Below, piece by piece: positions 1,739 to 49,141 of a DNA stretch of 64,000 bases; the first letter of the stretch is position 1; each line of letters begins with the position of its first letter. The notes below the pieces were generated by a model. The model saw only the letters and a list, made by a program, of their open reading frames with translations. It was not told where the DNA came from and made no database searches. A program made the position numbers and the translations under genes. The DNA lies in the NCBI RefSeq assembly GCF_055900595.2, contig NZ_CM148325.1, one strand, 5' to 3'.

Positions 1739-3121
1739 TTATTGCTGCCAACCGCCACCCAGGGCGGTATATAAGGAAACTTCGTTAACCTGACGGGCAT
1801 AATTCAGGTCGAGTAAAGTTTGTCGGGTTGCAAATAAAGAACGTTCGGCATCCAGCACTTCCAGATAACTTACCGCGCCGTGCTGATATAATGCCCGCGC
1901 CCGTTGCAGGGTAATTTGCAGCGACGCCAGATAACGCTGCTGGGCGCTGATTTGATCGTTCAGGCTTTGACGTAATGCAAGCGCATCTGCCACTTCTTTA
2001 AAGGCGTTCTGAATTTTCTGTTCATAATTCACCACCGACTGCTGCTGGCGAATTTCGGCGATATCCAGATTGGCCTGGTTGCGTCCGGCATTAAAAATGG
2101 GGATCTCAATTTTGGGAATAAAATTCCACATCCCGCTGCTGGCGTTAAATAATGATGACAGATCGCTGCTGGCGGTTGATATTCCACTGGTCAGGCTTAT
2201 AGACGGGAAAAATGCCGCACGCGCAGCACCAATATTGGCATTAGCCGCCATTAACGCGTGTTCAGCTTCCATAATATCCGGGCGCTGCAACAAGATTTGC
2301 GACGACAAGCCCGCCGGTAATTTAACGCTTTGCAGGCTGTCGCTGTTTACTGTCTGCGCTTGCGGCAGCTTGCCGTAGTTTCCCAATAACAGTTGCAATG
2401 CATTATTCGCCTGCGCCAGTTCCCCCTGACGTTTAGCGATATCACTGCGGGTACTTTCTATCACCCCGCGAGCCTGTTCCAGCGCCAGAACATTGCTGCT
2501 ACCAGTCAAAAGTTGTTTTTCGACAAACGCATATGACTGCTGATAATTACGCAGCGTTTCTTCGGCTATTTGTAATTGCGCATAAGCCAGTTGCTGATTG
2601 AAATAGCTTTGCGCGACATTAGAAACCAGCAGAATATGCACCGCGCGCTGAGCTTCCTCAGTGGCTAAATAATTTTGTCGCTCGGCTTCGCTCATGTTCT
2701 TTAAGCGACCGAAAAAATCGAGATCAAAGCTGGCGTTAAGGCCAGTCGAGAACTCCCGCGTCGTGGCTGAATCGCCTTTAAGATTGCCGCTCCAGCTGCC
2801 GCTACCCTCGCCATTGAGCTGCGGGTAGCGGTCGGCATCGGTCAGACGATATTGCGCCCGTGCCTCCTGCACTTTCAGCGTCGCCATGCGCAAATCCCGA
2901 TTATTCACCAGCGCCTCGCTAATCAGCGTCTTCACCTGATTATCAACAAAAAAGGTGCGCCAGCCCGCGTTCTGGTAGTTATCTACCGCGTTAACCAGGC
3001 CGTTCTGGCTGAGTGAGAACTGCTGCGGCACGGGCATTGCCGGACGCTGATATTCCGGTGCCAGTGAACAACCGGTTAGCGCAAGGGCCACACAAAATGG
3101 CAGAAGTTTACAAGGAGACAT
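1739..3121 (-). CDS. cusC: CusC outer-membrane efflux channel lipoprotein (TolC family)
   Basis: 460-aa ORF with lipobox (LTGCS) and outer-membrane factor repeats; divergent from cusRS. Confidence 0.9.
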   Translation of the reverse strand: MSPCKLLPFCVALALTGCSLAPEYQRPAMPVPQQFSLSQNGLVNAVDNYQNAGWRTFFVDNQVKTLISEALVNNRDLRMATLKVQEARAQYRLTDADRYPQLNGEGSGSWSGNLKGDSATTREFSTGLNASFDLDFFGRLKNMSEAERQNYLATEEAQRAVHILLVSNVAQSYFNQQLAYAQLQIAEETLRNYQQSYAFVEKQLLTGSSNVLALEQARGVIESTRSDIAKRQGELAQANNALQLLLGNYGKLPQAQTVNSDSLQSVKLPAGLSSQILLQRPDIMEAEHALMAANANIGAARAAFFPSISLTSGISTASSDLSSLFNASSGMWNFIPKIEIPIFNAGRNQANLDIAEIRQQQSVVNYEQKIQNAFKEVADALALRQSLNDQISAQQRYLASLQITLQRARALYQHGAVSYLEVLDAERSLFATRQTLLDLNYARQVNEVSLYTALGGGWQQ

Positions 3122-3190
3122 AGGCTCATAATTTCTGGTGATTTTATGCCGCCAACTTTACTCGCCAGGCTCTGATTTTCCGGTGACAGG

Positions 3191-3212
3191 AAAATGACAA
3201 AATTGTCATTTT
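3191..3212. promoter_or_regulatory. Palindromic CusR box in the cusC-cusR divergent promoter region
   Basis: Perfect inverted repeat AAAATGACAAAATTGTCATTTT seen in the cusC/cusR intergenic region; matches the remembered CusR binding consensus. Confidence 0.75.
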
Positions 3213-3277
3213 GCCAATAAGCGATTGCCATCTGATCCCGCTACTCTAGAATTGCCCGGGCAACATGCGGAGGAAAT

Positions 3278-3961
3278 ATGAAACTGTTGATTGTCGAAGA
3301 TGAAAAGAAAACCGGCGAATACTTAACCAAAGGGTTAACCGAGGCCGGTTTTGTGGTTGATTTGGCCGATAACGGGCTGAATGGATACCATCTGGCGATG
3401 ACAGGTGATTATGACCTGATAATCCTAGATATTATGCTGCCGGACGTGAACGGCTGGGATATCGTGCGTATGTTGCGTTCCGCCAATAAAGGGATGCCGA
3501 TTCTGTTGCTTACCGCGCTTGGCACCATTGAACATCGCGTCAAGGGGCTGGAGCTGGGAGCGGATGACTATCTGGTGAAGCCGTTCGCTTTTGCTGAACT
3601 GCTGGCGCGGGTGCGCACTCTACTGCGTCGCGGGGCGGCGGTGATTATCGAAAGTCAGTTTCAGGTTGCCGATTTAATGGTTGATCTGGTCAGCCGCAAA
3701 GTCACCCGCAGCGGCACGCGCATCACTTTGACCAGTAAAGAGTTTACTCTGCTGGAGTTTTTCCTTCGCCATCAGGGCGAAGTGCTGCCCCGCTCGCTTA
3801 TCGCCTCGCAGGTGTGGGACATGAATTTCGACAGCGACACTAACGCCATTGATGTGGCGGTGAAGCGGCTGCGCGGCAAAATCGACAACGACTTTGAGCC
3901 GAAGCTGATTCAAACCGTGCGCGGCGTGGGTTACATGCTTGAGGTGCCGGATGGTCAGTAA
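3278..3961 (+). CDS. cusR: CusR OmpR-family response regulator
   Basis: 227-aa ORF with receiver domain (LIVEDE...[11 protein letters not shown]) and winged-helix C-terminus. Confidence 0.9.
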
Positions 3962-35822: not shown

Positions 35823-37151
35823 CTGATGAATCCCCTAATGATTTTGGTAAAAATCATTAAGTTAAGGTGGATACACATCTTGTCATATGATCAAATGGTT
35901 TCGCCAAAAATCAATAATCAGACAACAAAATGTGCGAACTCGATATTTTACACGACTCTCTTTACCAATTCTGCCCCGAATTACACTTAAAACGACTCAA
36001 CAGCTTAACGTTGGCTTGCCACGCCTTACTTGACTGTAAAACTCTCACTCTTACCGAACTTGGCCGTAACCTGCCAACCAAAGCGAGAACAAAACATAAC
36101 ATCAAACGAATCGACCGATTGTTAGGTAATCGTCACCTCCACAAAGAGCGACTCGCTGTATACCGTTGGCATGCTAGCTTTATCTGTTCGGGCAATACGA
36201 TGCCCATTGTACTTGTTGACTGGTCTGATATCCGTGAGCAAAAACGGCTTATGGTATTGCGAGCTTCAGTCGCACTACACGGTCGTTCTGTTACTCTTTA
36301 TGAGAAAGCGTTCCCGCTTTCAGAGCAATGTTCAAAGAAAGCTCATGACCAATTTCTAGCCGACCTTGCGAGCATTCTACCGAGTAACACCACACCGCTC
36401 ATTGTCAGTGATGCTGGCTTTAAAGTGCCATGGTATAAATCCGTTGAGAAGCTGGGTTGGTACTGGTTAAGTCGAGTAAGAGGAAAAGTACAATATGCAG
36501 ACCTAGGAGCGGAAAACTGGAAACCTATCAGCAACTTACATGATATGTCATCTAGTCACTCAAAGACTTTAGGCTATAAGAGGCTGACTAAAAGCAATCC
36601 AATCTCATGCCAAATTCTATTGTATAAATCTCGCTCTAAAGGCCGAAAAAATCAGCGCTCGACACGGACTCATTGTCACCACCCGTCACCTAAAATCTAC
36701 TCAGCGTCGGCAAAGGAGCCATGGATTCTAGCAACTAACTTACCTGTTGAAATTCGAACACCCAAACAACTTGTTAATATCTATTCGAAGCGAATGCAGA
36801 TTGAAGAAACCTTCCGAGACTTGAAAAGTCCTGCCTACGGACTAGGCCTACGCCATAGCCGAACGAGCAGCTCAGAGCGTTTTGATATCATGCTGCTAAT
36901 CGCCCTGATGCTTCAACTAACATGTTGGCTTGCGGGCGTTCATGCTCAGAAACAAGGTTGGGACAAGCACTTCCAGGCTAACACAGTCAGAAATCGAAAC
37001 GTACTCTCAACAGTTCGCTTAGGCATGGAAGTTTTGCGGCATTCTGGCTACACAATAACAAGGGAAGACTCACTCGTGGCTGCAACCCTGCTTACTCAAA
37101 ATCTATTCACACATGGTTACGTTTTGGGGAAATTATGAGGGGATCTCTCAG
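35823..37151 (+). mobile_element. IS10 insertion sequence (1329 bp) with 9-bp target-site duplication
   Basis: Ends CTGATGAATCCCCTAATGATTTTGG... and ...GAAATTATGAGGGGATCTCTCAG; flanked by direct repeats TGCCAAGCA at 35814-35822 and 37152-37160. Confidence 0.95.
35930..37138 (+). CDS. IS10 transposase
   Basis: 402-aa ORF beginning 107 bp inside IS10, matching IS10 transposase sequence. Confidence 0.95.
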
Positions 37152-38301
37152 TGCCAAGCACTACTTTTCCTCTAACGATGCAGATGATGGTGATACTACT
37201 TATGCCCGTCTTGGCTTCAAAGGTGAAACCCAAATCAACGATCAACTGACTGGTTTCGGTCAGTGGGAATATGAATTCAAAGGCAACCGCGCTGAATCTC
37301 AAGGTTCCTCCAAAGACAAAACCCGTCTTGCATTTGCAGGCCTGAAATTCGGTGACTACGGCTCAATCGATTACGGCCGTAACTACGGTGTAGCATACGA
37401 CATCGGTGCGTGGACTGACGTCCTGCCAGAATTCGGTGGTGATACCTGGACCCAAACAGATGTGTTCATGACTGGTCGCACTACTGGTGTTGCAACTTAT
37501 CGTAACAACGACTTCTTTGGTCTGGTCGATGGCCTGAACTTTGCTGCTCAGTATCAGGGTAAAAATGACCGCACTGACGTAACTGAAGCCAATGGTGATG
37601 GTTTCGGTTTCTCCACTACTTATGAGTATGAAGGATTCGGCGTGGGTGCAACCTATGCTAAATCAGATCGCACTGACGGTCAGGTCGCCTATGGTAAGAG
37701 CAAATTCAATGCCTCCGGCAAAAATGCGGAAGTATGGGCTGCAGGCCTGAAATATGATGCGAACAATATCTATCTGGCTACCACATATTCTGAAACTCAG
37801 AATATGACCGTTTTTGGTAATAACCATATTGCAAACAAAGCACAAAACTTTGAAGCAGTAGCACAATATCAGTTTGACTTCGGTCTGCGCCCATCTGTTG
37901 CTTACCTTCAGTCAAAAGGTAAAGACCTTGGTGTTCATGGTGACCGAGACTTAGTCAAGTATGTCGATGTCGGTGCTACTTACTACTTTAATAAAAACAT
38001 GTCCACTTTTGTTGATTACAAAATCAACTTAATTGACGATAGTAAGTTTACCAAAACAGCTGGTATTGATACTGATGACATCGTTGCTGTAGGTCTGGTT
38101 TACCAGTTCTAATCTGATTACGAAAAAGATATGTTGCGGGAGGCGTTGCCTCCCCAACATATAAGTGGCTCCCTCAAGCCACTTCCTTTAGAAGCACAAC
38201 CTTGCTTCTAACTATATAAACCTTCTGTTATATATTACCCTTTATTTTTGGGGGCGTCTCAACGCCCCATTTTTAATAATTTTTAGTAAACAATTGGCAT
38301 A

Positions 38302-46023: not shown

Positions 46024-46127
46024 AACAACCTCCGTGGTTAATTTGAATCAAGATTAAAACTATGGTTGTTTTTAGTCAACAACCATTTTCGTTTGATGAA
46101 ATAAAACCTTGGTTGTACATTTGGACT
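46024..46127. promoter_or_regulatory. Immunity-region divergent promoter/operator region (OR-like)
   Basis: Intergenic between cro-like and cI genes; inverted repeats built on GGTTGT/ACAACC (ATGGTTGTTTTTAGTCAACAACCAT, AACCTTGGTTGTACA). Confidence 0.55.
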
Positions 46128-46817
46128 ATGAAAACAACACTCTCAGAAAGACTTAAAGAAGCCAGATTAGCGCGAGGCCTTACACAAAAGGCGCTTGGGG
46201 ATTTGGTCGGGGTTAGCCAAGCAGCTATTCAGAAAATCGAAACAGGGAAAGCTAACCAAACAACTAAAATCGTGGAGATCGCGAACGCTTTGGGTGTGCG
46301 CGCAGAATGGTTATCTTCTGGCGTTGGAAATATGTCAGACAGTACAGTGCAACCAATACAAACAACTGTCAGCCATTCCAAATACTTTAAGATTGACGTT
46401 CTTGATATCGAAGTGAGTGCCGGGCCGGGAGTCATCAACCGTGAGTTTGTAGAAGTTCTACGTTCGGTTGAGTATTCGTTTGACGATGCTCGTCACATGT
46501 TCGATGGCAGGAAGGCGGAAAATATCCGTATCATTAACGTACGCGGTGACAGCATGTCAGGAACGATCGAACCAGGTGATCTGCTATTCGTTGATATCAC
46601 TGTTAAATCTTTCGACGGTGATGGTATCTATGCGTTTCTGTACGACGACACAGCCCATGTAAAGCGCCTGCAAATGATGAAGGATAAACTGCTGGTTATC
46701 TCTGATAACAAGAGCTACTCACCGTGGGACCCAATCGAGAAAGACGAGATGAACCGGGTATTCATCTTCGGGAAAGTCATCGGGAGCATGCCGCAGACGT
46801 ATAGGAAGCATGGATAA
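46128..46817 (+). CDS. cI: CI-type repressor (HTH plus S24 LexA-like autopeptidase domain)
   Basis: ORF 46062-46817; start at MKTTLSERLKEARLARGLTQKALGDLVGVSQAAIQKIE (HTH); C-terminal S24 motifs (RGDSMSGTI, KRL). Confidence 0.85.
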   Translation: MKTTLSERLKEARLARGLTQKALGDLVGVSQAAIQKIETGKANQTTKIVEIANALGVRAEWLSSGVGNMSDSTVQPIQTTVSHSKYFKIDVLDIEVSAGPGVINREFVEVLRSVEYSFDDARHMFDGRKAENIRIINVRGDSMSGTIEPGDLLFVDITVKSFDGDGIYAFLYDDTAHVKRLQMMKDKLLVISDNKSYSPWDPIEKDEMNRVFIFGKVIGSMPQTYRKHG

Positions 46818-46912
46818 TTCGACATAAATTCAACAAGTTAACTTTGGCTTCAAAAAAGCATCGATAACATTGCATTATATTTTTCCTTTTGTCTAACTTA
46901 AAAGGATGAACA

Positions 46913-47638
46913 ATGGAAGAACGTGGGAATTACCTAATAGACCCCCTAGAAGTAATTGGTTCTGGCGGTTTTGGCCTTGTAGAAAAAATAAGGTTATATA
47001 ACTCACAAAGAAAAATTTGTGGTCTATATGCCAGAAAAATTTTACGACCTGATGCAACAGATCCTGAACTCTTTACCAGATTTGAACGAGAAGTAAGATA
47101 TCAAACTGAATGCCTGCATACTAATATTGTCCAAATATTCATATGCCACTTACAGAATGCTCAGCCTTGGTTCGTAATGGAACTAGCAGAAACAAATCTT
47201 GAAGAAGAAATAAAAAGTGGAACTCTTACAAAGGCTGAAAAAATCTCTATTGTAAAAATGGTACTAAATGCCGTCGGATGGATTCATAAGAAAGGATATC
47301 TTCATCGGGATATAAAACCACTAAATGTACTAAAATTTAAAGATGGAATTTATAAGTTATCTGACTTCGGCCTTGCAAAAAATGTGTCACCAGATGCCAA
47401 TACACAGCTATTAACACAAATTGGCCAATACCCCGCTACTCCTAAATACTTTGATTACAACGTTTTCCTCAACGGATATTCAAAACAATCAGATATATAT
47501 TCAATTGGTATTTTAATTGAAGAATTAAATATTGATGGTTTTGATGATATAATAAACAAATGTACGCATAGACAACTTAACAAAAGATTCCTGACCGTAG
47601 AGCAGATCTTTGAGGAATTGGAGTTGAAACGCTTATGA
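46913..47638 (+). CDS. Eukaryotic-like (Hanks-type) Ser/Thr protein kinase, minimal 241-aa form
   Basis: Gly-rich loop GSGGFGLV, catalytic loop HRDIKPLN, DFG (SDFGLAK); very AT-rich; directly downstream of cI in the rexAB slot. Confidence 0.8.
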   Translation: MEERGNYLIDPLEVIGSGGFGLVEKIRLYNSQRKICGLYARKILRPDATDPELFTRFEREVRYQTECLHTNIVQIFICHLQNAQPWFVMELAETNLEEEIKSGTLTKAEKISIVKMVLNAVGWIHKKGYLHRDIKPLNVLKFKDGIYKLSDFGLAKNVSPDANTQLLTQIGQYPATPKYFDYNVFLNGYSKQSDIYSIGILIEELNIDGFDDIINKCTHRQLNKRFLTVEQIFEELELKRL

Positions 47639-48378
47639 TTAGCATACTCTCATCATCCATATTTTCTGTACCAAAACATAATGGCAGGGAAAATCAAGAT
47701 AGCGTGCTTTATCCACTTCAAACACCAAATGGTTATCTTATGGCTATAGCTGATGGGGTTGGTGGTTATAAAGGAGGAAAAGAAGCATCTGCAGCAGTAA
47801 TAAATCATTTGTATAGTATTAAAGACAGCTTCACTCATGAAGACAATGTCTTATCCTTACTTAAGACCCTACAAGAAAAGGTGGCATCTCTTTCGTCAGT
47901 TGATAAAGAATTAGCATCTGCTGCTACAACTTTAACAATGTGCCTACTTCACAATCAAGGTCTAACAATTATACATGTAGGTGACTGTCGTGTTTATTTA
48001 AAAAATGGAAATAAGCTAATCCAATTAACAACAGATCATACTCAACATCAAATGTTGATAGATAGCGGTATTTATACAGCTCGACAGCTCAAAAATGCAA
48101 AAGGTAAAAATATTATTACAACTGCACTTGCTGCCAAGATCCCCCTTCAACATCAAGTCATAAATATTGATAAAGATGAACTTCCTCTTGACGATGGTGT
48201 TCTATCTCTATTCATCATGTCTGATGGCGCGCATACCTTTTGGGAGCAACGCCCACGATTTTCTTACCGTACATTGTCAACCGCATCAAGGTTTGCCTCC
48301 AGCCTAATGCGAAGAATAGAGACAAAAGGCCCGACTGACGATTATTCTCTTATAGCGGTAAATGTAAAGTATTTGTAA
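47635..48378 (+). CDS. PP2C-family Ser/Thr protein phosphatase
   Basis: 247-aa ORF overlapping kinase stop by 4 nt (ATGA); motifs AIADGVGG, GDCRVY, TTDHT, SDG. Confidence 0.75.
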   Translation: MISILSSSIFSVPKHNGRENQDSVLYPLQTPNGYLMAIADGVGGYKGGKEASAAVINHLYSIKDSFTHEDNVLSLLKTLQEKVASLSSVDKELASAATTLTMCLLHNQGLTIIHVGDCRVYLKNGNKLIQLTTDHTQHQMLIDSGIYTARQLKNAKGKNIITTALAAKIPLQHQVINIDKDELPLDDGVLSLFIMSDGAHTFWEQRPRFSYRTLSTASRFASSLMRRIETKGPTDDYSLIAVNVKYL

Positions 48379-48382
48379 ACTT

Positions 48383-48410
48383 CCCGGCCACCGTGCCGGG
48401 TTTTCTTTTA
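48383..48410 (+). terminator. Intrinsic terminator after the cI-kinase-phosphatase unit
   Basis: CCCGGC-caccgt-GCCGGG hairpin followed by TTTTCTTTT, 5 nt after the phosphatase stop. Confidence 0.8.
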
Positions 48411-48774
48411 TCCCCTCCCCTCATCACGTATACCGTTCAAAAAACCACCACAATCTCCCTTCAGTTATCGCTATGCGATGCAAGTCACAAAATAAATCCA
48501 TCCTAAATACAACCAGTTACATCTAAAACAACCAATAAAACAACTTTTGTTGTTGACGATAAAACAACTATAGTTTTAAATAAATTCATCGCAACAACAC
48601 AACGATACGGCAACCACCTGATTCACCGTTGCGATGACCGCTTAGATCCGCAGCTTGAATTTCAGCAGGCTTCGGGGAGTGCGAGGGATGAAACGGACGC
48701 GTGAACGTCGGTGTGACCAGCTGAAATCAACTCAACATTTCATACCTTAGTCGCTTCAACGAGGCGGCTTAGTT

Positions 48775-49065
48775 ATGACAACCGGCGGCCATCCACCGCC
48801 TGAATACGCGCAGAAGTCTTTATATGTTCAGCAGCCCAGCTTACGGGCAGGAGTTTTTATGGTTCATCAACATTACGGAACGCAGACCGTTAATCGAGGT
48901 GCGGTCATGCCAGGAATGCTGGTCAAACACAAAGATGGTACCTGGACTGCATCAGCTAATTTACGCGGACGGCTTTATCTGCATCGCGGCATCGAGCGCA
49001 CTTATACCCGTGATTTGCTCGTGGAAGTTTTTCTCGACGGACGCGGTAACGGCCTGAATCACTAA
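48775..49065 (+). CDS. Hypothetical protein upstream of gam (kil/cIII position)
   Basis: 96-aa ORF in the early-left operon; no family recognised. Confidence 0.35.
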
Positions 49066-49141
49066 CCCCCCTTTCCTGTTTTCCTTATCAGCCTGGCATT
49101 TCGCGGGCGATATTTTCACAGCCATTTTCAGGAGTTCAGCC

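Follow-up and report, generated by a model that had tools for sequence, protein, structure and literature searches.

What are a protein kinase gene and a protein phosphatase gene doing directly behind the cI repressor gene of a lambdoid prophage? The question is raised by a 64,000-nucleotide stretch of contig NZ_CM148325.1 (RefSeq assembly GCF_055900595.2), referred to here as the window, in which a Hanks-type Ser/Thr kinase gene (46913-47638, + strand) and a PP2C phosphatase gene (47635-48378, + strand) fill the interval between cI and a downstream terminator. In lambda the corresponding genes, rexA and rexB, are expressed in the lysogen and give exclusion. An original prediction, made from the letters of the window, had described the two genes as acquired cargo in the rexAB slot and as a possible phosphorylation switch with a reset or restraint built in. 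The observation itself was confirmed and its interpretation was partly supported by the analysis described below. The reading favoured here, with a probability of about one half and on the basis of genomic context, is that the pair is a lysogen-expressed, phosphorylation-based toxin/antidote module that defends its host against other phages.

The cassette and the slot behind cI

The cI gene encodes a 229-amino-acid repressor of the S24 peptidase family and occupies 46128-46817 (+ strand), according to the open reading frame list and to the annotation by the Prokaryotic Genome Annotation Pipeline (PGAP) of a near-identical prophage (L001), where WP_042107501.1 is named an S24 family peptidase at the equivalent place. 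This start is the most likely one, rather than an upstream ATG at 46062. Since cI ends at 46817, a gap of 95 nt separates it from the kinase ATG; this leader (46818-46912, + strand) closes with a Shine-Dalgarno-like AAGGA, 8 nt upstream of the ATG. The kinase gene (46913-47638) encodes 241 amino acids without an accessory domain and the phosphatase gene (47635-48378) encodes 247 amino acids comprising the catalytic domain only. The two overlap by an ATGA stop/start at 47635-47638, as had been predicted, an arrangement that implies translational coupling of kinase and phosphatase.

The 95-bp gap had been said to hold no terminator, and none was found in it by the terminator scan. No sigma-70-like promoter was found on the + strand of the leader by the promoter scan; a weak TTGCAT-18-TAACTT arrangement seen by eye was rejected as evidence of an own promoter. 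With no terminator between the genes and no convincing promoter in the leader, co-transcription of the pair with cI is plausible. The predicted fold of the leader RNA is no better than that of shuffled sequence (z = -0.32), no shared element was found upstream of 12 homologous pairs, and no Rfam match was obtained in the 45.5-49.5 kb region.

Downstream of the pair lies an intrinsic terminator of the immunity transcript (48383-48410, + strand), placed by the terminator scan at 48383-48400 and consisting of a 6-bp all-GC stem followed by the T-tract TTTTCTTTT, with a fold of -12.2 kcal/mol (z = -2.25). The original prediction had the gene pair ending at this hairpin, which is indeed present but is a feature of the phage backbone and not of the cassette. 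Phage PhiR47_2, in which the same cro-cI region is found and the cI DNA is 97-98% identical, loses blastn homology to the window at 46816 and regains it at 48382. From these break points, leader, kinase gene and phosphatase gene have been swapped as one unit, to the exclusion of the terminator, which is part of the backbone. The exchangeable unit was accordingly placed at 46817-48381 from the blastn break points against two comparison loci (L002 and L003), with the terminator forming the right edge of the slot. The terminator flank is present in 336 and the cassette in 14 of 5,426 complete E. coli genomes, and the terminator is common to PhiR47_2 and SCU-152, which carry other cargo. The leader is not common to PhiR47_2 or to the Raoultella allele of the pair (blastn), and when the cassette DNA was searched against sequenced phages by megablast, only the flanks were matched.

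The fraction of guanine plus cytosine (GC) is 0.28 in the leader, 0.34 in the kinase gene and 0.37 in the phosphatase gene, compared with 0.46 in cI, 0.50 in the next 1.5 kb and 0.47 in the remaining prophage. Low GC and the sharp homology breaks at 46816 and 48382 together support the earlier view of the pair as AT-rich acquired cargo.

The slot itself is on the cI strand and extends from cI to the terminator ahead of the kil-gam-bet-exo operon; its content varies. Behind an identical cI protein (WP_042107501.1) it can hold a 353-amino-acid protein with an ASCH protein, full-length PADLOC matches to PDC-M11A/B, or a single 313-amino-acid protein with a full-length PADLOC match to PDC-S42; behind a related cI it holds an ImmA/IrrE peptidase with a DUF4411 protein. 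These alternative occupants were located at L024 2581-3997 (PDC-M11 A+B), L025 3054-3995 (PDC-S42) and L003 3353-5001 (ImmA/IrrE and DUF4411). In PhiR47_2 the PDC-M11 A+B cargo is annotated as a GevT/GevA toxin/antitoxin, on which no literature was found. Within this lambdoid group the stretch between cI and the terminator is a hotspot for cargo. In phages of the 24B/933W type the interval contains stk, followed by a terminator that is labelled tRM in the record annotation and described as the putative terminator of the pRM transcript. This layout makes the analogy with the rexAB slot, drawn in the original prediction along with that to stk, a sound one. No PADLOC match was obtained for four other open reading frames of the window.

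Two conserved enzymes that travel as a pair

The profile and structure searches that had been proposed as checks agree on the nature of both proteins, which RefSeq annotates generically. The upstream protein matches Pkinase in Pfam (7e-32); the other match is the overlapping PK_Tyr_Ser-Thr, and none was found outside the kinase families. The motifs quoted in the original prediction are present in both proteins and correspond to catalytic positions. In the kinase, the catalytic (VAIK) lysine is predicted from an alignment to StkP/PknB to be K42, the catalytic loop is H131-R-D-I-K-P-L-N138, the DFG motif is at 151-153, and T164 and T168 are conserved hydroxyls of the activation loop. Residues G16/G18/G21/V23, K42, E60, H131-R-D-x-K135-x-x-N138 and D151-F-G are invariant in 28 of 28 family kinases, and the catalytic residues are also invariant in a separate set of 24 homologues. 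HRDxK and a near-invariant T176 are Ser/Thr-type signatures, and judged by its sequence the 241-amino-acid protein has all the hallmarks of a Hanks-type Ser/Thr kinase. It is a reduced one: in the alignment to StkP/PknB it lacks the helix G region, some 36 residues following helix F, and an APE motif is not recognisable. AlphaFold models of both proteins were built from family alignments. For the kinase, the AlphaFold 2 (AF2) model has a mean predicted local distance difference test score (pLDDT) of 89.8 and a kinase fold with template modelling scores (TM) of 0.76-0.84 to PknB and others, the activation loop being the only poorly defined part.

The downstream protein matches PP2C_2 (1e-11) and PP2C (1.5e-7) in Pfam and Stp1_PP2C in NCBIfam (1e-31), the last under its curated cut-off. 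The metal-binding aspartates of PP2C motifs 1, 2, 8 and 11 are D22, D40, D197 and D235/D236, and D22, D40-G41, D197-G198 and D235-D236 are invariant in all 28 phosphatases. The AF2 model (pLDDT 91.9) has the PP2C fold, with PstP, tPphA, Stp1 and PppA as its closest folds (TM 0.74-0.80 to PstP, tPphA and Stp1); the closest solved structures are phosphatases partnered with Hanks kinases. The protein thus shows the metal-binding residues and the fold that define the PPM/PP2C class. One motif, W203-x2-R206-P-R-F209, is invariant or nearly so within the family and is missing from the housekeeping PP2C proteins aligned with it; the kinase, or a phage trigger, could dock on the surface that it forms. 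The phosphatase also matches positions 276-519 of the 565-position profile phrog_5650, a hint of a fused kinase-PP2C protein. The kinase does not match this profile, and a fused-protein reading was therefore rejected for the pair.

In the searches for relatives, the kinase family formed 58 clusters of 156-282 amino acids (most 241-282) scoring 175-541 bits, with the next score down at 115 bits, and the PP2C family at least 120 clusters of about 245-256 amino acids. About 20 representatives scored above 200 bits in a library of 1.84 billion proteins clustered at 50% identity. The taxa named are almost all Gammaproteobacteria, including many Enterobacterales, Acinetobacter, Xanthomonas, Pseudomonas, Vibrio and Neptunomonas.

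Pairing was scanned in a viral contig collection. With the kinase profile, a PP2C gene was found directly downstream in 27 of 28 family loci, the 28th being cut by the contig end, and none of the 28 contained a second kinase. With a kinase DNA pattern, both genes were full and adjacent in 70 of 80 loci. Eight of the ten exceptions are uninformative, six being cut by a contig or locus end, one (L238) being a distant relative with too little downstream DNA to judge and one (L244, described below) being a long-form relative that does possess a PP2C; in L253 the kinase is C-terminally shortened and in L226 it is frameshifted, and the phosphatase is intact in both. With the PP2C profile, a full kinase gene lay directly upstream in 73 of 78 loci. 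A third conserved gene was considered and rejected, as the downstream neighbours differ in every context. A long-form relative occurs on a high-GC phage contig (L244 4410-6433), where a 418-amino-acid kinase is followed after 56 nt by a 236-amino-acid PP2C; this kinase has the same PWFxMxLA and HRD core and a C-terminal extension of about 170 amino acids, which may be a sensor domain that the minimal form is missing.

Across 28 distinct pairs the mean pairwise identity is 43% for the kinase and 46% for the phosphatase, and kinase and phosphatase have diverged in a correlated manner (r = 0.72). Stop and start overlap in 25 of the 28, by 4 nt in 22 of these, and nowhere are the two genes more than 7 nt apart. 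Loss of catalytic residues in homologues, which had been named in advance as evidence that would tell against the original prediction, was not seen: every catalytic residue of both enzymes is invariant at this level of divergence. Of the activation-loop Ser/Thr positions, 168 is kept in 28/28 and 164 in 26/28. The two genes, kinase first and PP2C second, form a mobile module that is conserved in Gammaproteobacteria.

Where the pair decays, it does so from one side. An intact phosphatase stands beside a disrupted kinase in five of the 78 PP2C-anchored loci (L165, L169 and L177, at about 2720-3714; L176, 2175-3744; L142, 1-2534), and these represent three independent events: deletion of the N-terminal two-thirds of the kinase, a frameshift, and scrambling by partial tandem duplications. 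In L142 the phosphatase is itself enlarged to 366 amino acids. Truncated kinases 98-99% identical to that of the window were also found in the protein collection (P0005, P0007). The converse, an intact kinase without an intact phosphatase, was not found among about 72 evaluable kinase-anchored loci. The direction of decay is a hint, of the kind that toxin/antidote pairs give, that the kinase may be harmful without its phosphatase.

Relation to known kinase systems

In the original prediction the pair was not recognised as a described defence system. As regards the two-gene family this stands: in the literature searched no paper was found on the family or on the two RefSeq accessions, and a Hanks kinase plus PP2C pair is not included in the E. 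coli pangenome screen, DefensePredictor, the domain-centric screen or the P2/P4 hotspot paper. As regards the principle it does not, because kinase/phosphatase defence has been published as KKP, and the kinase matches PADLOC defence models.

KKP (PfpC-PfkB-PfkA) is a prophage-encoded kinase-kinase-PP2C module that acts in toxin/antitoxin fashion and in phage defence (Guo et al. 2024, PMC11341870). The two kinases together are toxic, and the PP2C neutralises them catalytically; E. coli given a module from any of several bacteria is protected against T4 and T-odd phages, and T4 Gp59 triggers KKP by inhibiting its phosphatase (PMC11341870). Toxicity needs both kinases, each with its C-terminal domain, CSD in PfkA and FHA in PfkB (PMC11341870). 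Like KKP, the window pair is prophage and satellite cargo of Gram-negative bacteria that combines a Hanks-type Ser/Thr kinase and a PP2C_2 phosphatase in one operon. KKP, however, has three genes in the order PP2C-kinase-kinase, whereas the window has one kinase followed by the PP2C, and its 241-amino-acid kinase has neither a CSD nor an FHA domain in Pfam. The published KKP census required triplets of 900-1300-bp genes, so the present family was excluded by design. The pair is not a member of KKP, and by analogy it probably works in a similar way.

The parallel with stk of 933W, raised in the original prediction, holds for position and fails for kinship beyond the kinase fold. In 933W and 24B the gene occupies the same slot, downstream of cI on the same strand and before the putative pRM terminator. 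Stk is however a protein of 348 amino acids with 26% identity over the kinase core and no phosphatase neighbour, and it was published as a tyrosine kinase that was reported to cause abortive infection on HK97 superinfection (Friedman et al. 2011).

Among PADLOC models, the window kinase matches mad6, Stk2 (2e-27) and PD-T4-6 (down to 1.5e-34). Stk2 and PD-T4-6 confer abortive-type defence through phosphorylation. The matches to these two models span approximately positions 15-205 of 292-327, that is, the catalytic core. Unlike the window kinase with its obligate PP2C partner, Stk2 of staphylococci and PD-T4-6 of E. coli are single proteins with extra C-terminal regions and no dedicated phosphatase.

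The closest sequences and folds for both proteins are those of the housekeeping pairs PknB/PstP, Stk1/Stp1, PrkC/PrpC and PpkA/PppA. Their kinases, in contrast, are long membrane-anchored sensors with PASTA or FHA partners that are encoded in the core genome, usually with the phosphatase gene preceding the kinase gene, whereas the window pair is soluble, minimal, AT-rich mobile cargo. The NCBIfam scores (105 against an equivalog cut-off of 450 bits for Stk1, 110 against 230 bits for Stp1) are far under the cut-offs, from which it follows that the pair is not orthologous to the cell-wall-sensing pairs. To lambda RexAB, a sensor with a membrane ion channel, the pair bears no relation in sequence or mechanism; the resemblance is one of position, with two cargo genes lying in each case between cI and the immunity terminator, and probably also of transcription. 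A Rex model was not among the PADLOC matches listed. Nor is the pair part of a TerY-P arrangement, there being no adjacent TerY/vWA gene where the neighbours are cI and the terminator.

Genomic contexts and a possible role in defence

The pair is no rarity: besides the genomes that carry the window allele, 53 more complete E. coli genomes, including 55989 and E24377A, have related alleles. Among phages it occupies five or more different moron slots. In Rac-like prophages, both of E. coli and of Raoultella/Klebsiella, the alleles are divergent and the repressor ahead of the pair is one of two other, unrelated types. In Cronobacter phage phiES15 and E. coli 55989 the pair directly follows the antiterminator gene Q, the position at which Stx phages carry stx. 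In phage Flotzy and E. coli A38 it lies between Rz and terS, and further phage copies lie after Ant or within the head-tail connector genes. It is also present in Klebsiella elements with satellite-type primases, and for one Klebsiella PP2C allele the assembly collection records 885 blocks. Almost wherever the pair occurs, its GC is markedly below that of its flanks. The pair behaves as a classic moron and is present in most known moron slots.

Its position directly behind cI, and behind two other repressor types, would suit a regulatory module in which the two enzymes set the phosphorylation of some regulator in the host or the prophage, for instance a nucleoid protein or the repressor pathway, and so tune lysogeny, induction or physiology. 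Reversible modification by a kinase/phosphatase pair amounts by its design to a switch, both activities appear from their residues to be conserved, and KKP has such a second function, through MvaU. A regulator bound to the circuitry of one prophage would not be expected to move so freely, however, and the pair occurs in late-gene slots, satellites, plasmids and the plain chromosome of distant genera; moreover, no DNA-binding or sensor domain was found in either protein with Pfam. A regulatory role is on this evidence considered unlikely.

The late positions raise another possibility, namely that the pair serves lytic growth as an instrument of offence or counter-defence, the kinase remodelling host proteins (compare gp0.7 of T7) or the PP2C erasing phosphorylation laid down by host defences, with the partner enzyme limiting self-harm. 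Many copies are in late operons and on the late-gene strand, after Q, after Rz or among the connector genes. The slot behind a repressor, probably expressed in the lysogen, is nevertheless where the copy in the window and those of no fewer than two further allele groups lie, and copies occur in satellite-like elements, plasmids and non-phage islands. In E. coli ChlosBP-23-1, furthermore, the pair is kept in a prophage that has been stripped of its tail and most head genes. Such a lytic function seems very improbable.

The ChlosBP-23-1 prophage, which is of the same family as that in the window, also carries genes for beta family and sce7726 family proteins between a terminase remnant and the lysis genes (L107 32201-33830). 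These are missing from the equivalent place in the window and may be another cargo pair.

Outside phages, the neighbours of the pair are themselves variable. In two Yersinia enterocolitica strains (L007 8051-10602 and L008 8100-9952) the flanks of the pair are identical and the adjacent slot has been swapped. The slot next to the pair in this island holds either a ThsB-like TIR protein with a STAND NTPase (PDC-S60) or PDC-M38, the latter consisting of an AbiL-like AAA_15 ATPase and a DUF3226 protein. On small Acinetobacter plasmids the pair adjoins either a RelE/ParE toxin-antitoxin pair or an AAA ATPase and HNH pair, of which the HNH gene is annotated in its record as 'retron system putative HNH endonuclease' with the Gene Ontology term defense response to virus.

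The Acinetobacter plasmids that carry RelE/ParE are small and non-mobilisable, a setting that recalls a pure addiction module, which would stabilise its mobile element by post-segregational killing and have no role against incoming phages. The toxin/antidote-like asymmetry of decay and the tight translational coupling are in keeping with such a module. An integrated prophage, by contrast, gains little from segregational killing, a phosphatase acting as a catalytic antidote is not obviously expected to be the less stable of the two enzymes, and the neighbours of the pair are more often defence candidates than maintenance genes. Addiction as the sole function therefore appears improbable.

Several further features were observed in the vicinity of the cassette and elsewhere in the window. 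The intergenic region between cro and cI contains, at 46062-46086, an inverted repeat with perfect 9-bp arms, ATGGTTGTT-N7-AACAACCAT, which was flagged on both strands by the terminator scan and overlaps the upstream ATG of the long cI open reading frame. It is more likely to be a repressor operator than a terminator; its half-site (CAACAACY) recurs elsewhere at chance level only. Between the immunity terminator and the kil-gam-bet-exo genes (48411-49140) there is no gene for an N-like antiterminator; a promoter-like TTGACG...TATAGT occurs near 48550-48580 and is followed by an untranslated stretch of about 250 nt. At 35930-37138 (+ strand) a gene for a 402-amino-acid IS4-family transposase abuts a prophage porin gene (37135-38112, phrog_410) whose product is without the first approximately 37 profile positions of phrog_410; the arrangement looks like that left by an insertion sequence which entered an nmpC/ompC-like moron, located between the lysis genes and Q, at its 5' end.

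A defence role for the pair is plausible, the evidence being that of context. As a toxin/antidote defence module, the pair would be transcribed in the lysogen together with cI, by read-through from the repressor promoter, and its two products would be made by coupled translation. In PknB/PstP-type pairs the cognate PP2C dephosphorylates the activation loop of the kinase. In the same way, the window PP2C would continuously strip phosphate from the kinase activation loop (positions 164 and 168) and from any substrates, and so keep a potentially harmful, accessory-domain-free kinase silent. Infection by another phage would tip the balance, either because the phosphatase is inhibited or lost or because the kinase is directly activated. 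The freed kinase would then phosphorylate host proteins, phage proteins or both, leading to growth arrest or to a block in phage development, and the lysogen population would be protected.

A number of observations weigh against this model. Many of the phage copies are placed in late operons, behind Q, behind Rz or among the connector genes, where lysogen expression is not the default, and these late locations are the main fact that a defence model leaves unexplained. Some copies, in Acinetobacter and in a metagenomic gammaproteobacterium, are on the plain chromosome without mobile or defence neighbours. A sensor domain is missing from the kinase, which leaves the trigger unexplained. The PADLOC matches of the kinase cover the generic kinase domain only, and the sole PADLOC match of the phosphatase at E <= 0.01 is a weak one (8e-9) to the candidate PDC-M21C. 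The asymmetry of decay is statistically weak, with a one-sided Fisher p of 0.036 when raw loci are counted and 0.13 when independent events are counted.

It is possible, and suggested here tentatively, that the minimal pair is an autonomous, phosphorylation-based immune module in the simplest form conceivable, in which the PP2C, through its family-specific W-x2-RPRF surface, serves as the bait struck by incoming phages and the domain-less, helix-G-less kinase as the executioner. If this were true, the pair would represent the core from which multi-domain systems such as KKP were elaborated.

The cI-to-terminator interval of this phage group, for which at least four alternative occupants are counted, joins the known defence-cargo hotspots. 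A cassette of 1.5 kb, native to E. coli and located in the best-understood of prophage slots, is easy to test for function. Should the pair prove to defend, no smaller kinase-based immune module would be known, for it is made of two catalytic domains and without a sensor domain. How infection is sensed would then become the question, with the phosphatase itself, as in KKP, the leading candidate.

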